From: Candidatus Babelota bacterium
GTDB lineage: Bacteria; Babelota; Babeliae; Babelales; Vermiphilaceae
DNA: 64,000 nucleotides
Assembly: GCA_029262555.1 (NCBI GenBank)
Contig: JAJCZE010000016.1
Location: 25,129 to 89,128, forward strand
Direction: 5' to 3'
Part shown: piece after piece, positions 25,890 through 31,374 of the stretch
Numbering within the stretch: position 1 is the stretch's first letter
Layout: each line of letters opens with the position of its first letter
Made by a program: the position numbers and the translations under genes
Notes under the pieces: model-generated
Seen by the model: only the letters and a program-made list of their open reading frames with translations
Told to the model about the DNA's origin: nothing
Database searches by the model: none

Positions 25890-26007
25890 GCGCCTCTCTT
25901 TAAGCACCATAAATCCTTTTCATTTCATATAGAGCAAAACTATATATCCACCCCCACGCCCAATCATTCCAAACTGAATTAAGTTACAATAAAAGCTTAT
26001 ATTTCGC

Positions 26008-26035
26008 TTGCTTTTTAAAAAAATAAGAGGATAAT
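26008..26035 (+). promoter_or_regulatory. Candidate sigma70-type promoter for the AAA+ cassette
   Basis: TTGCTT, 16 nt, GATAAT, about 50 nt upstream of the ATG at 26088. This is a sequence match only. Confidence 0.35.
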
Positions 26036-26087
26036 CCAAAAGTAGAAGTAAGTATTTCTTTTACATTTTTTCCTAAAGGGTTTTATC

Positions 26088-27302
26088 ATGATGCTCAAGC
26101 AGGTATCATGGAGACGTAGTAATCGAGCCCTGTTTCTTTTCTCTCTTCTATTAGTTCCAACCTATTTATTTTCTGGTGATCCCGATGCCTCTGGATGCGC
26201 TACAAAAGCCGCAGAGCAAGCAGCAGACGCAACTGCAAAAGCCGAAGCAGCAGCCAGATCTAAAGCCGGTGCCGGCGCTGGTGTTGGTGGCGAACCTGCG
26301 CCACCACGTAGAGGTATTTCTGAAGCAGACTTTTTTCCCTGTTCAGAAAAAGAAATCGCCATTCAAGAGCGAATTTTAAGAACTCAGGGAGAAGAAGTTA
26401 ATAGCCTTCATAAAACATTGGCTAGGCAAAATCGTGTAAATAGAGTTGTCCTCTTTCATGGCGAACCTGGGGTAGGAAAATCAGATGGCGCAATAGGGCT
26501 TTGTAGGCGTATGAATCTTCGCTTAATGCGTATAGATCGTCATCAAATTAGCTCAGGCTCCTATGGTACATCTGGCAAAAAGCTTGTCAAAAGATTGAAC
26601 AGCGCCGTAGCTGAGTCAGATTGTTGTGGAATATTTATTGATGAATGCGATAAGATTTTTGATCATCCAGAACAGCAAAATAGAGACACCGCACAAACCG
26701 CAAATGATTTTTGGGTATGGACTGACGACTTTAATAAGCTACCGTCAAATAAGCGCATAGTTATTCTTGCCGCTAATGATATTACACATTTCCCGCAACC
26801 ACTTTTATCACGACTATCAGGTATGATATATGAATTCCATGGGCCAACAAGCCCAAAGGATAAAGCTGATGCGCTTGCTTCTTACTTTCCTATGTATCCA
26901 GATTTACCTCTCGCCTATATACAAAAAGCACAATGGCTTTTTACGAAGTATCCTAAACTTACGGGGCGAGATTTTCAGCTTATTTACCAAAAAGCCTTAG
27001 ACTATGCTGGCGATGATGATGTAACCATGGATCATGCTCAACGAGCAATCGAAAAAATTCATCAAGAGCGGCTGGATAGCAAGTATTATGATGAAGACGA
27101 AACGCCTCAAGATCAAGCAGAGCGCCATTTCAATTGGAATAGTAGATTTCAGCTTGCAAATAGCGCACTAAATGCGGGCTGGACCATATTTAAAATAGGA
27201 AAAGCAATACATAAGTGGCATCAGGGAGACACTGATGGGGCCTCTCAAGACGCACAAGACGTTGCAGGGGCTGCTGTTGATGCCTTACGAGGTGAACAAT
27301 GA
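26088..27302 (+). CDS. Membrane-anchored classical AAA+ ATPase (single AAA module)
   Basis: N-terminal hydrophobic anchor (ALFLFSLLLVPTYLF) and an Ala/Gly-rich linker. The AAA module has Walker A GEPGVGKSDG, Walker B GIFIDECDKIF, sensor-1-like ILAANDITHFPQPLLSRL and a helical lid. The stop overlaps the next start (ATGA). Confidence 0.85.
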   Translation: MMLKQVSWRRSNRALFLFSLLLVPTYLFSGDPDASGCATKAAEQAADATAKAEAAARSKAGAGAGVGGEPAPPRRGISEADFFPCSEKEIAIQERILRTQGEEVNSLHKTLARQNRVNRVVLFHGEPGVGKSDGAIGLCRRMNLRLMRIDRHQISSGSYGTSGKKLVKRLNSAVAESDCCGIFIDECDKIFDHPEQQNRDTAQTANDFWVWTDDFNKLPSNKRIVILAANDITHFPQPLLSRLSGMIYEFHGPTSPKDKADALASYFPMYPDLPLAYIQKAQWLFTKYPKLTGRDFQLIYQKALDYAGDDDVTMDHAQRAIEKIHQERLDSKYYDEDETPQDQAERHFNWNSRFQLANSALNAGWTIFKIGKAIHKWHQGDTDGASQDAQDVAGAAVDALRGEQ

Positions 27303-29494
27303 TGAAACGCATACTACTGACGCTACTCACTTTCCCCTTTTTACGTGGGTCAGAAATAACAAAAAAAATCCGTGTCGATGCCAAGCAAGAACTCGTAGAC
27401 TATTTTTACTTAAATATGGGACCTTTGTTTGATTCGTCCACTCAAATGTTTCGTATAAAAAATATATTGAATCAACGATCAACTAGCACCGAGAATATAC
27501 ACTTTGTTGGTATAGCGGATGTTAAAATGTGTTTACGGCCTGCTATACGCGCATACAATAACAAACTCGAAGAAGCCGTTAGATCATTTAACTTAACAGC
27601 CTTAAAAGCTTCAAGGCGATTTTTAACAGACAAATTAAGCGAACGAACTCTTTCCGACAATGAGCGCATTATATATTCCAAACAAATGCAATTACTCATA
27701 TATCATTATAATTCACAAAACATGCAAAATTTTATAGCCATTGTAGAGTCGGACTCACATGAAGAAGCTGCGGTATCGCTCTCTAGCTTACAATCTCAAT
27801 ATCATATGGGCGGATTAAATCAAGATGCCCTAAAAATTGCAGAAGAAGCTTTTCTTTCTCGGTCAGAAGCAGAAGGACTGCGGCAGTTTCACTATCCACT
27901 AGGTACAAATCTAGCTCCTTGGGTAAAATACTACCAGGATTGTGATAAAGAACGATTAGAAGGAGATTGGCTTTCTCTTAATGCAAAAGAAGGCAAATTG
28001 GAATCGCGCTTAAAGGATCCAGATCTCTCCCCCGAGGTCCGATTACATTTGCAACGGGAAAAAGACATTGTAAGTAGCATGCTTCGTCACCACTCAACGA
28101 CACCACTTATGGCAGTACGTCAAGGAAATCCTCGCTCAGCTTTGATTGCATGGAGAAATTTAGAGCAGTGGTGTAAAGATGGGCAAATTGATAGTAAAAC
28201 GTTTCAAGCGGCAAAAACTTTTTATTTACAGCGAAAAGATGTGCATGAATTGGAAGATTCTGCTGCAATAAGTGTTGAAAAACCTACTGAAACAGTTAGC
28301 TCTACAGTCGATGCAAAAATAGACTCTTCGTCCCAACTTGCAAGCGAATTTCTTAATACCGAGTTTGGTATCACACCTGATCGATATTTTAATTTCTCTG
28401 GCACGGCTGAACAGCTTAAAAATGATGCCGTTATCAAGCAAGCTCTTAATAACAATGTCAGTTATTTGCATCAGGCAAAAACGATTGAAGAGCAAGGAAT
28501 GTGGGCTGTAGCGATTCAAGCTAATGTGGAAGCATTTAAGCAAAATGAATCGGGAGCGCTCCAAGGGGCTACGTTTAGTGCGCAATCATTAGATCAGTCT
28601 GAATTGGTCGAAATTGCGTCTCAAGTGGTATCTCGGATAGGCGATAATGCGCAACACCCAATCAGCTTCATTCAAGAAAAAGTTGCCGAAGTTGCCAACA
28701 TTGGATGTGCAATAGCGGATCTTACTATTGGCCAAGCATTCCGAACTCCTGAACAGCAAGTACAGCGCATTCAAGAATTTGCTGCAACAATAGATTCTTA
28801 TGCCGGCTTGCCGTGGGCAGAAAAAAAGACAATCTTTGTAAATGCAATTGCGGATATTATTACTGTAACTGGATTTGCGACTGCAGGGAAAATGGTTACA
28901 AGCCTTGCTGCAAATATTCCCCAATATCTTCCCGCAATTACTGCCGCATTTTCGGAAGGAACCAGTGAACTATTAAGCGCATTAAGCGAGACGCTTTATG
29001 GTGCAAGCTTTAGTGGTGGTGGCGCAGCCGCTGCGCAAACATCTGCATCGCAGGAAGTGATTGCAAACTCAATTGCGCAAGTCGCGAGTGGATTTGCAGT
29101 GGCTATAGCTGCTGATGGATCAGCCACAGTAAGCATGCCCGATCCCTCTTCTGTATTACGGCAGGATAGTGAGAAAACAACTGGCGGTAGCGCTCCTGAT
29201 GTAGTAAAATCTAAGCCAGCGAAAACGGTTGATGATTTGATAAGTGAAGCAACGTTTAGAAAGCAAAAAAGAAGGGCTAAAATCTATGATAAATGTGGAA
29301 CATATCAAGACATGTTAAAAGATTTTGAAAATATGAATCTTACAGAAGTTAGAGATATTTCTTCGGGCAAACTTGGTAAACTTCCTGATGGAAAAGCTGT
29401 AACAGCCCGAATGAAAAGCTCTGACGGGGCTCCCACATTGGAAATTTTTAATCCTATCAAAAACAAAAGTGTTAAATTTAGATATGGAGATTGA
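27299..29494 (+). CDS. Large hypothetical protein (731 aa) with a short C-terminal toxin-like module
   Basis: Uninterrupted ORF coupled at both ends by 4-nt overlaps. The body is long and helix-rich, followed by a Gly/Ala/Ser-rich linker (GASFSGGGAAAAQTSAS...). The terminal module of about 90 aa reads KIYDKCGTYQDMLKDF...GKLGKLPDGKAVTARMKSSDGAPTLEIFNPIKNKSVKFRYGD. Its size, position and pattern are typical of the C-terminal domains of polymorphic toxins (inference). Confidence 0.7.
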   Translation: MMKRILLTLLTFPFLRGSEITKKIRVDAKQELVDYFYLNMGPLFDSSTQMFRIKNILNQRSTSTENIHFVGIADVKMCLRPAIRAYNNKLEEAVRSFNLTALKASRRFLTDKLSERTLSDNERIIYSKQMQLLIYHYNSQNMQNFIAIVESDSHEEAAVSLSSLQSQYHMGGLNQDALKIAEEAFLSRSEAEGLRQFHYPLGTNLAPWVKYYQDCDKERLEGDWLSLNAKEGKLESRLKDPDLSPEVRLHLQREKDIVSSMLRHHSTTPLMAVRQGNPRSALIAWRNLEQWCKDGQIDSKTFQAAKTFYLQRKDVHELEDSAAISVEKPTETVSSTVDAKIDSSSQLASEFLNTEFGITPDRYFNFSGTAEQLKNDAVIKQALNNNVSYLHQAKTIEEQGMWAVAIQANVEAFKQNESGALQGATFSAQSLDQSELVEIASQVVSRIGDNAQHPISFIQEKVAEVANIGCAIADLTIGQAFRTPEQQVQRIQEFAATIDSYAGLPWAEKKTIFVNAIADIITVTGFATAGKMVTSLAANIPQYLPAITAAFSEGTSELLSALSETLYGASFSGGGAAAAQTSASQEVIANSIAQVASGFAVAIAADGSATVSMPDPSSVLRQDSEKTTGGSAPDVVKSKPAKTVDDLISEATFRKQKRRAKIYDKCGTYQDMLKDFENMNLTEVRDISSGKLGKLPDGKAVTARMKSSDGAPTLEIFNPIKNKSVKFRYGD

Positions 29495-29496
29495 GT

Positions 29497-29907
29497 ATGC
29501 CAGAAAACTGGATGACATGGGAAGCTGCAAAAGGCCTAAATGCTAAATATTACATCGATACTATTTTAGATTCAGATGATGATGGGTTTATTATTGAGTT
29601 ATCTGAACAAAATAATAACAAAAAGAAGGTGCGAATTACATTTAAAGATTGGGTATGGTCTTATAAATACGTCCAAGAGATCTTTGCTACTAATAGACTT
29701 GATGAGGTAAGAGGCAAACATGAAAAAGATTTTTTCAAAGGACGCACTTTTTTTAAAATTTCTGAATCAAACTATTTACGCCAGTTATCTCAAGAATCCT
29801 CTGACATTTTGAATTATTATGGAGGAGCAATTCATTTTTGTTTTGTATCTGCTGAATCTATATTAGATGTAATTGCTAATTATGAGCCCACTATTGAATT
29901 TATTTAA
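29497..29907 (+). CDS. Immunity-like small cytoplasmic protein, paralogue A
   Basis: GGAGA RBS 7 nt upstream of the ATG at 29497, which lies 2 nt after the stop of the 731-aa gene. It is about 136 aa with no signal peptide, and is paralogous to the next ORF. Confidence 0.7.
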   Translation: MPENWMTWEAAKGLNAKYYIDTILDSDDDGFIIELSEQNNNKKKVRITFKDWVWSYKYVQEIFATNRLDEVRGKHEKDFFKGRTFFKISESNYLRQLSQESSDILNYYGGAIHFCFVSAESILDVIANYEPTIEFI

Positions 29908-29917
29908 GAAAAACAAT

Positions 29918-30349
29918 ATGACGAATAAAATGGAAAAATGGAAAAAGTGGGTGCCGACTAAAAACATTCCGGGTACATTATATTATGAAGAAATTGTCAG
30001 CAATAAAAAAGGTTTAACGTTATTATTTTCAGATGAATCAAATACCAAAACAATAAAAATTACGTTTAACGGACTAGTTTACTCATATAGGTTTACAGAA
30101 GAAGGATGCTTATTAAAAACATTGGACTATCTAGTAGATACACATAAGAAAAAAGACTTTCATGGTTGGTGTATGTTTGAAGTACAAAATTCAAACTACT
30201 TAACCTGGTTTAAAGAAGAATCCTATGATGCGTATGATACAGAAACATTTGCCCATTATGCCATTTATACCGAAGATGGATTAATCGAAGTGCTTTCTCC
30301 CTATCCTCCCGAAATTGAAGTCAAAGACCTTGTTAAGAGCTCAAAATGA
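29918..30349 (+). CDS. Immunity-like small cytoplasmic protein, paralogue B
   Basis: Three blocks align between the two paralogues: KTIKITFNGLVYSYRFTEE with KKVRITFKDWVWSYKYVQE, FEVQNSNYLTWFKEES with FKISESNYLRQLSQES, and HYAIYTEDGLIEVLSPYPPEIEV with HFCFVSAESILDVIANYEPTIEFI. The start is uncertain (29918 or 29930). The stop overlaps the next start. Confidence 0.7.
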   Translation: MTNKMEKWKKWVPTKNIPGTLYYEEIVSNKKGLTLLFSDESNTKTIKITFNGLVYSYRFTEEGCLLKTLDYLVDTHKKKDFHGWCMFEVQNSNYLTWFKEESYDAYDTETFAHYAIYTEDGLIEVLSPYPPEIEVKDLVKSSK

Positions 30350-30933
30350 AACTCCATCTTTTTTTATTGCCGCTATTACTACTTACTCAAACTACATTCC
30401 CCCATCAGCCCGCCAAAAAAGAGCTGAAAATTTACCGCGCCCCTATTGATTATAGCGCTGCTTTATGTTTGATCTTTGGAACAATCTCTTCAATGGGATC
30501 TGCTGCATTTTTTACACTATCCAGATATGAGCCCAGGCCTCCAAGCCACAAATCTTCTTTTTTGTTCGGTGTATTGCCGGCAGGTATCGCTGTCGGATTA
30601 TTTGCAATAGGATGGAAAGCGCAAGAACAATGGAATGTGCTCATGCATAAACCCATTCTCATTTTTGATGAAGAAGGGTTTACCTACGAACACTCAATGG
30701 GAGCCTTTAAAGATCGTAAGGATGTTCGCTATCTATGGAAAAATGTAATATCTCATTGGGTATCAAAAGTTATAAATGAATATGGCATCACCGAAAAAGA
30801 ACATTGGAATTATCACGTAAAAGGCATTGAGCGCGTAGTGAAAATTAATGCTTTAGAGCTTAATATTCCTAAAAATTTACGTGCACAAGTTCACTCTCTC
30901 AGGCAAGGCCAGATTCGAGCATTATCAATATAA
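30346..30933 (+). CDS. Two-TM membrane protein with a soluble C-terminal (possibly PH-like) domain
   Basis: Signal-like N-terminus, then two hydrophobic helices (ALCLIFGTISSMGSAAFFTL; FLFGVLPAGIAVGLFAIGW). The next segment (PILIFDEEGFTYEH...VRYLWKNVISHW) is reminiscent of bacterial PH-like membrane proteins, but that domain call is weak. It is the last gene of the coupled cassette. Confidence 0.65.
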   Translation: MKLHLFLLPLLLLTQTTFPHQPAKKELKIYRAPIDYSAALCLIFGTISSMGSAAFFTLSRYEPRPPSHKSSFLFGVLPAGIAVGLFAIGWKAQEQWNVLMHKPILIFDEEGFTYEHSMGAFKDRKDVRYLWKNVISHWVSKVINEYGITEKEHWNYHVKGIERVVKINALELNIPKNLRAQVHSLRQGQIRALSI

Positions 30934-31209: not shown

Positions 31210-31232
31210 TACAACTCCCTTACCATTCGCTC

Positions 31233-31364
31233 CCTTCGACAAGCTCAGGGCGAACGGTAGATTTATTAAACTATATCTTTTCTTCCTTCCTCTTCATGTC
31301 CTTCATACTCACCAATATGCCCACACAGAGATTTCATAGCCGTTCGTCCTGAGCTTGTCGAAGG
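31233..31364. repeat. Palindromic MITE/REP-like element (25-bp terminal inverted repeats)
   Basis: The left arm is CCTTCGACAAGCTCAGGGCGAACGG (31233-31257). The right arm is CCGTTCGTCCTGAGCTTGTCGAAGG (31340-31364). They are reverse complements with one mismatch, separated by about 82 bp. The element lies between the rapZ stop and the ftsB start. Confidence 0.75.
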
Positions 31365-31374
31365 ATACGAACAG

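Follow-up and report, generated by a model that had tools for sequence, protein, structure and literature searches.

A mobile toxin-like C-terminal domain and its probable immunity genes in a Candidatus Babelota genome

Two small neighboring genes of a Candidatus Babelota bacterium raise the question of whether they are immunity genes for the protein encoded directly upstream and why two strongly diverged copies lie side by side. The window analyzed here is a stretch of 64,000 nucleotides (nt) from GenBank assembly GCA_029262555.1 (contig JAJCZE010000016.1, positions 25,129 to 89,128 of the forward strand; GTDB lineage Bacteria; Babelota; Babeliae; Babelales; Vermiphilaceae), and coordinates given without a contig refer to it; the labels G, L and C stand for genomes of the phylum, compared loci (including metagenome contigs) and contigs, respectively. 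The two genes, here called immA and immB, follow a gene for a protein of 731 amino acids (aa), and a preliminary description of this DNA had interpreted them as immunity genes arrayed downstream of a toxin with a variable C-terminus. We consider it quite probable (roughly 0.85) that they are the immunity genes of a polymorphic toxin-immunity cassette, in which immA is the cognate of the resident toxin tip and immB was retained from a tip that has been displaced.

The putative toxin precursor of 731 aa (27299..29494, + strand) begins with a signal-like N-terminus and a long body; two hydrophobic segments rich in Ala and Gly (residues 511–530 and 586–605) and a linker come shortly before a C-terminal domain (CTD) of about 93 aa (29213..29491, + strand; residues 639–731), which represents the type 1 allele of an unnamed family. 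At 12 loci from relatives, the open reading frame (ORF) directly 5′ of the small genes ends with a segment of this length that is homologous to residues 639–731. The CTD ended 0–7 residues before the stop codon in all 34 ORFs considered (33 loci), while the ORFs bearing it ranged from 140 to 2127 aa and differed in their N-terminal parts; BLAST separated the bodies into 12 or more unrelated clusters. Signal-like N-termini were present on the toxin proteins, and the biggest cluster of carriers combines a signal peptide, a PT-HINT domain (PF07591), a linker and the CTD. A carrier of another kind was found on an unrelated metagenome contig with 46% G+C (L059), where the CTD (E = 3e−35) ends a 771-aa protein with Fil_haemagg_2 repeats (PF13332, E = 2e−36) of the CdiA/filamentous hemagglutinin (FHA) type; a member of the small-protein family follows 17 nt 3′ of this gene (E = 9e−56), and several FHA-type fragments lie nearby, an arrangement as in contact-dependent inhibition (CDI) loci. 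The C-terminus encoded just ahead of the small genes is thus a discrete, conserved domain found on many unrelated exported proteins.

The linkage between this domain and the small genes was surveyed in 261 genomes of the phylum, which yielded 46 occurrences of the CTD in 33 genomes and 111 of the small-protein family in 46 genomes. Every one of the 46 CTDs was followed, on the same strand and within 5–280 nt, by one to six family members: a single copy at 23 loci, two copies at 20, and three, four and six copies at one locus each. A further 36 family copies had no detected CTD ahead of them, being orphans, copies at contig ends or parts of arrays behind other toxins. The same linkage was present in independent metagenome contigs (L030, L051, L056-58, L059, L060, L062, L064 and L066). 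The divergence of the CTD and that of the first immunity copy were correlated (Mantel r = 0.56, p < 5e−4); when only the two-copy loci were considered, the first copy correlated with the CTD at r = 0.38, the second at r = 0.24. The immunity family was the more divergent partner, with a mean identity of 29% vs. 38% for the CTD. A mobile CTD, linkage without exception and co-variation with the CTD are features that define polymorphic toxin-immunity systems; these results, together with the CdiA/FHA-type case, support the immunity array proposed earlier.

The two ORFs are present on the + strand as described. The first, immA (29497..29907, with its ATG at 29497 and its stop codon at 29905–29907), encodes 136 aa, starts 2 nt past the stop of the 731-aa gene, has a GGAG about 9 nt before the ATG, and would be the type-A, cognate immunity gene of the resident type 1 CTD. 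The second, immB, which would be a type-B, legacy or orphan gene for a type 2 CTD, can be read as 143 aa from an ATG at 29918 or as 139 aa from an ATG at 29930 (29930..30349, + strand). Because its three closest orthologs begin at the equivalent of the latter (MEKW...), the shorter product is more likely, so that of the two sizes given previously, 136 aa was retained and 143 aa probably has to be corrected. The products aligned over their full length with 39 of 132 residues identical (30%; 51% positives, 3 gaps, BLASTP E = 6e−19), a similarity that is far above chance and that bears out the view of whole-length but strongly diverged paralogs, as do the three peptide pairs quoted in its favor, all of which were found in the translations. 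Both copies keep the invariant or near-invariant residues of the family (W8, W11, F50, E62, S92, Y94, H113 and P131 in immB numbering), and the leftover DNA similarity amounts to a 38-nt stretch with 71% identity. The ratio of nonsynonymous to synonymous substitutions between the two genes, which had been suggested as a check, was dropped as uninformative, since synonymous sites are saturated (pS = 0.69). Comparisons with orthologs from a near relative indicated purifying selection on immA (omega 0.14) and immB (omega 0.22, with dS of 1.6 being near saturation), and the values for the two genes and the CTD together span 0.14–0.22. No signal peptide was found on either small protein. The AlphaFold2 monomer model of immB (pLDDT 92.2, pTM 0.86) has nine strands and three helices; the conserved Ser/His/Glu were considered as a catalytic triad and this was rejected, as S92 and E62 stand at the N-terminal ends of helices in the model, where a role as structural caps is the simpler explanation.

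The small-protein family was previously not recognized, and this remained so in all libraries searched. Neither immA nor immB (E ≤ 1) nor the 731-aa protein matched Pfam, none of the three had an NCBIfam match below E = 0.1, and PADLOC returned nothing. A search of 86 aligned family members against Pfam found no immunity family, Imm* and SUKH/SMI1 included, at E ≤ 0.1. A profile search of the PDB with the immunity alignment produced nothing but spurious summed matches, all to designed PPR/TPR repeats, and Foldseek with the immB model against the PDB yielded a best E of 0.14 at a TM score of about 0.2 (PCNA-type noise). A housekeeping role unrelated to conflict systems, which the preliminary description had named as the contrary outcome, is excluded. 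The family is nevertheless large: while a single-protein, word-index homolog search gave merely 1–2 matches, the exhaustive phmmer search with immB used instead, run against representatives clustered at 50% identity in a library of 1.84 billion proteins, retrieved 899 clusters at E < 1e−3 and 232 at E < 1e−10. Nearly all of these matches are 125–150 aa long, with few two-domain fusions, and the members are labelled hypothetical wherever a source names them. Fusion of tandem immunity genes has given rise to at least three distinct proteins of 274–280 aa (P0005, P0013 and P0018, the last being G152:C6:33642-34460, L037), which hold two full immunity domains joined by a linker of 8–10 residues. 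The family tree gave no support to first and second copies as two ancient positional subfamilies, as local duplications, duplications of whole cassettes and mixed pairs all occur in it. At one locus (G174:C37; L040:1-5741), a single CTD is followed by a six-copy array with three identical copies, which suggests a recent segmental amplification. Between two CTD/immunity arrays on a metagenome contig (L062:3860-4575) lies a nucleotidyltransferase (PF01909/PF18765) and NTase_sub_bind (PF08780) gene pair that looks like a toxin-antitoxin module of the MNT-HEPN type.

Why two different copies stand behind one CTD became clearer when the locus was compared with its relatives. The product of immA is 77% identical to that of the gene behind the CTD of L051, a CTD that is itself 75–78% identical to the one in the window, and its sister in the tree is the single immunity gene of G003, from the same genus (47% identity). 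The product of immB groups with other copies of the family and is 48% identical to that of the sole immunity gene of L060. The order in L051 is type 1 CTD, immA-type gene (77%), immB-type gene (51%) and an unrelated gene, which shows that the CTD and two immunity genes form a conserved module there. The syntenic metagenome relative L064 (84% DNA identity to the window across rapZ–ctpA) has an AAA+ gene, a gene for an 816-aa toxin, one immB-type gene, a homolog of the 195-aa gene that follows immB in the window, and ftsB; the core of its type 2 CTD is only 37% identical to the CTD in the window and its lone immunity protein 47% identical to that of immB. In L066, the end of a toxin with a type 1 CTD (52% identical to that of the window) is followed by a type-A gene (39% to immA), an orphan 205-aa ORF with a type 2 CTD, a type-B gene (52.5% to immB) and the 195-aa homolog. 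Type-A immunity genes thus go with type 1 CTDs and type-B genes with type 2 CTDs, and the window and L051 have retained a type-B gene without a type 2 CTD. The earlier notion of tandem duplicates stands as far as adjacent paralogs are concerned, but a simple duplication in place is not the best explanation, the copies being two types that are each paired with their own CTD allele.

The borders of the exchanged segment can be read from the same comparisons. Residues 343–729 of the 731-aa protein are 67% identical to the 816-aa protein of L064, and residues 258–731 are 23% identical to a 630-aa protein of L060. At the DNA level, the similarity to L064 and L066 ends at 29254 (around residue 652), just past the motif KTVDDL..EAT, and that to L064 returns at 30078, inside immB; because of this break and resumption, the CTD core and immA are regarded as a replaced or inserted segment. 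A homology block precedes the CTD (28911..29254, + strand) and comprises a hydrophobic segment, the linker ‘..SVLRQDSEK.TGG..’ and the CTD start ‘KTVDDL..EAT’. In L066, this block occurs twice, once in the main toxin gene and once at the head of the orphan 205-aa CTD module, whose pre-CTD body and linker are 58% identical to residues 536–731, and it is probably a recombination arm. Within the CTD, the N-terminal part (29213-29300; KTVDDLISEATFRKQKRRA.IY) is close to a same-genus toxin (G003:C48, L020; KTVDDLVGEATFKEQKRRAILY), while the C-terminal part resembles other alleles instead (L051, L021), which hints at recombination inside the domain as well.

A second cassette was observed in the same genome (C13:50381-56482, minus strand). 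It has a paralog of the AAA+ gene (482 aa) and a 727-aa toxin with a different C-terminus, followed by three tandem paralogs of about 100 aa, a 182-aa orphan fragment and genes for 113 and 142 aa; in the 182-aa fragment, the pre-CTD linker ..LLRQDNQSTPGGGD is repeated ahead of a third kind of C-terminus. None of these products had a Pfam match, and BLASTP found no significant similarity between the two toxin bodies, with only the LRQD..T.GG junction aligning (E = 0.18). With its orphan toxin fragment and repeated linker, this cassette shows the same logic as the locus in the window.

In the reading that we favor, the 731-aa precursor would be exported through Sec, while the immunity proteins would stay in the cytoplasm and neutralize the CTD by binding, protecting the producer, and its kin when neighbors deliver the toxin. 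Both the toxicity of the CTD and its specific neutralization by the immunity protein are presumed in this reading. A type 2 CTD would have held the locus earlier, until a module made of the type 1 CTD and its cognate immA displaced the older tip by recombination, with a crossover in the conserved block that precedes the CTD and runs up to KTVDDL..EAT. The orphaned old tip would have been lost later and immB kept, and its retention would still guard against sister strains that use the type 2 tip.

Several points weigh against this scenario. The direction of the displacement is suggested by parsimony with three relatives and not by a rooted phylogeny, a loss of immA in L064 being the alternative, and the deep branches of the immunity tree are weakly supported. 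The two-domain fusions in three independent proteins indicate that the copies could cooperate and not act separately. A Pfam scan of the 731-aa protein found no known module for outer-membrane export or target entry. The CTD model had its best Foldseek match at E = 0.014 and its top matches at E = 0.014–0.2 with TM scores ≤ 0.54, none of them significant, and for this reason any toxic activity ascribed to the domain is a guess.

The fusions would also fit immA and immB as subunits of one heteromeric immunity protein, both being needed against the resident CTD, and it speaks for such a partnership that exactly two copies occur at 20 of the 46 loci and that first and second copies are correlated in their sequence distances (r = 0.47). 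However, half of the CTDs (23 of 46) are followed by a single immunity gene, and each type was found as the only gene following a CTD (L064 and L060 for type B, G003 for the sister of type A); L066 has the orphan CTD module between the two types, each of which stands behind its own CTD, and in L051 immA follows the divergence of the CTD (77% vs. 75–78%) while immB does not (51%), all of which makes a heteromer unlikely. A function as export chaperones or adaptors, by which the CTD would be kept competent for secretion, is also very unlikely for the small proteins, even though they are small, cytoplasmic, encoded beside an exported protein and tightly coupled to the 3′ end of the toxin gene. 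Known toxin chaperones and adaptors follow the carrier or the N-terminal region, whereas this family goes with the CTD on 12 or more unrelated carriers, PT-HINT and FHA types included, and its copy number of 1–6, its many toxin-less orphan copies and its evolution at a faster rate than that of the CTD are immunity-like.

An equally slight or even slighter chance is given to a simple, recent tandem duplication with relaxed divergence, in which one copy would be redundant or decaying. Adjacent paralogs of equal length with residual DNA similarity over 38 nt are what such an event would leave, and truly local duplications do exist elsewhere in the family, for instance in a G202 pair with 55% identity whose members are sisters in the tree. 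The two genes of the window, however, lie in different deep branches, each is nearer to copies from other genomes (47–77%) than to its neighbor (30%), both are under purifying selection with all invariant residues kept, and in the relatives the two types go with two CTD alleles. Toxin-immunity pairing, with immA as the cognate gene and immB as the retained one, accounts for these observations better than the alternatives do.

What the CTD does was approached through its conservation and its predicted fold. Across 31 diverse CTDs, R66, S69, T75, R90 and Y91 (CTD numbering) were invariant and K27, G29, D37, F38, G55, G60, L76, E77 and K88 were conserved in at least 90%, while no histidine was conserved. 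The AlphaFold2 model (pLDDT 93.8, pTM 0.83) has the topology alpha-beta-beta-alpha-beta-beta-beta-beta-beta, with the polar invariants on the last three strands and the intervening loop. Eleven CTDs searched against Pfam at E ≤ 10 gave no relevant match and no named toxin domain (Ntox*, Tox-*, BECR/colicin RNases, HNH, deaminases or ARTs), profile searches of the PDB with two CTD alignments returned only spurious matches to PPR/TPR repeats, and Foldseek against the PDB and BFVD found nothing at E ≤ 1e−3. The weak structural matches were to RNA nucleotidyltransferases, the teneurin C-terminal region and enzymes of the vicinal oxygen chelate (VOC) fold. An active nucleotidyltransferase of the Pol-beta type was rejected, despite RNA uridylyltransferases having the top E-values, as conservation is lacking for the acidic residues of the strand that follows the G-G/helix.

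The teneurin C-terminal region derives from a bacterial polymorphic toxin. Together with VOC enzymes (BphC, FosX), it (6FB3, 8R54) provided the matches with the highest TM scores (TMq 0.46–0.54); the teneurin matches had a probability of 0.90–0.99, but their E-values of 0.07–0.2 are not significant and the identity is 14–17%. From the co-occurring VOC matches, the similarity would fall on the antibiotic-binding-like domain of teneurin, which is of the bleomycin-resistance/VOC type (PMC6425310). This domain is not itself a toxin, and the likeness is taken as a weak resemblance of folds and not as an assignment. The cytoplasmic immunity proteins and the invariant R/S/T/E/K/R/Y set without histidine suggest, tentatively and at somewhat less than even odds, a cytoplasmic substrate that probably contains phosphate (nucleic acid or nucleotide). 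More speculative still, and on balance doubtful, is the idea that the CTD represents a novel toxin class whose fold and chemistry are absent from solved structures and whose mark is the invariant R-S-T-R-Y signature with near-invariant K, D, E and K but without histidine, that in these protist-associated bacteria with reduced genomes it is delivered along a route not yet described, made up of Sec export, the hydrophobic pre-toxin segment and a dedicated AAA+ ATPase as partner, and that it serves in warfare between co-infecting strains in or around the host cell. If this were true, legacy immunity genes such as immB would be a record of past toxin alleles.

Among known systems, the locus belongs to the polymorphic toxin-immunity systems in the sense reportedly set out by Zhang et al. 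2012 (Biol Direct), although its toxin tip and immunity families are unnamed. The CTD lies at the extreme C-terminus of larger exported proteins, recurs on unrelated carriers (at least 12 clusters, PT-HINT and FHA/CdiA types among them), has a co-varying immunity gene downstream on the same strand, and comes with orphan tip and immunity cassettes (the 36 unlinked copies and the modules in L066 and C13) and with mosaic homology to L064. Sec-dependent polymorphic toxins with the pre-toxin HINT domain PT-HINT (PF07591) have been described (Zhang, Iyer & Aravind 2011, PMC3113570). Like these, the most numerous carriers of this CTD in the phylum have a signal peptide, PT-HINT, a linker and the CTD followed by immunity genes, and the C-terminal toxin, downstream immunity and orphan modules are also shared. 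In contrast, the 731-aa carrier in the window has neither HINT nor another Pfam domain and is preceded by an AAA+ ATPase gene, and the CTD and the immunity family are both missing from the named Pfam Ntox/Tox/Imm families.

CdiA-CT/CdiI modules, orphan cdiA-CT/cdiI arrays and the displacement of toxin tips were reportedly described by Aoki et al. 2010 and Poole et al. 2011. The resemblance to CDI lies in the same pair of CTD and immunity gene ending a Fil_haemagg_2 protein in L059, in a conserved pre-CTD block that acts like the VENN junction (with the homology of relatives stopping just past KTVDDL..EAT), and in orphan CTD fragments that repeat this block, together with the apparent retention of immunity genes from displaced tips. 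Compared with the CDI background (PMC5435912), the protein in the window lacks FHA repeats and a two-partner secretion (TPS) domain, the island holds no CdiB gene, the junction motif is not VENN, and the hosts have reduced genomes with no CDI machinery seen at this locus; the carrier features of CDI (TPS, FHA repeats, CdiB) were encountered only with the unrelated L059 carrier. The MafB/MafI toxin-immunity islands of Neisseria (PMC7738311, PMC9263626) are similar in having toxins with Sec signals and variable C-terminal tips, downstream immunity genes, spare tip/immunity cassettes and a conserved accessory gene beside the toxin in a genomic island, but there is no relation in sequence, the accessory gene encodes an AAA+ ATPase and not the MafA lipoprotein, and no DUF1020 body is present. 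The locus also does not have the make-up of a type II toxin-antitoxin system, the toxin being the tail of exported proteins of 140–2127 aa, and the small proteins matched no DNA-binding or antitoxin family in Pfam. A literature search on Dependentiae and polymorphic toxins or immunity found no paper.

The cassette is part of a tightly packed series of five ORFs that run in one direction (26088-30933, + strand). Because the ABC-F gene directly abuts ftsB in three genomes of the same genus (G001, G002 and G003), the roughly 5 kb from the AAA+ gene to the gene with two transmembrane segments, between the ABC-F gene and ftsB (25890..30933, + strand), are considered a strain-variable island, a mosaic version of which sits at the same chromosomal site in L064. 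Direct repeats flanking the island were looked for and not found. In scans of the five cassette proteins with Pfam, NCBIfam and PADLOC, the sole match was the AAA domain of the first (404 aa; 26088..27302, + strand; PF00004, E = 2.9e−18), whose stop overlaps the toxin gene start (27302 vs. 27299) and which has a hydrophobic N-terminal leader. AAA+ genes also stand directly upstream of comparable toxins in the C13 cassette, L019, L023, L056-58, L060 and L064, and the ATPases of the window and L064 have only their first 28 residues in common (93% identical). This leader (26088-26180; MMLKQVSWRRSNRALFLFSLLLVP...) recurs over its first 30–80 residues, with 51–81% identity, at the starts of other ORFs of the same genome (C1:30168-30365, C7:362-1105, C11:98692-98784 and C13:56264-56482) and is a shared leader or a recombination arm. 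With its basic N-terminus and subsequent hydrophobic stretch, it would put the ATPase domain outside the cytoplasm, an odd place for it. The last member of the island, the 195-aa protein (30346..30933, + strand), has a signal-like N-terminus and, by hydropathy, two transmembrane segments; its homologs (47% in L064 and 66% in L066) come after the type-B immunity gene, and no homolog was present at the other 32 CTD loci examined. Farther downstream, between ftsB and rapZ, an inverted repeat was noticed (31226-31371) with 32-nt arms that are 88% complementary and an 82-nt spacer.

Taken together, these comparisons define a widespread pair of toxin tip and immunity protein that is named in no current family library, with an immunity family of 899 clusters. 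The confidently predicted, small size of both the CTD and the immunity protein makes them easy targets for work on structure and activity. The relatives form what appears to be a natural series of tip replacement, in which the old tip and its immunity gene stand alone in L064, the new tip and new immunity gene are joined by the orphaned old tip and its gene in L066, and the window and L051 hold the new tip with both immunity genes. For the bacteria themselves, the locus with its recurrent AAA+ partner is added evidence that obligately host-associated organisms with genomes of about 1.1 Mb still invest in weapons against other bacteria.

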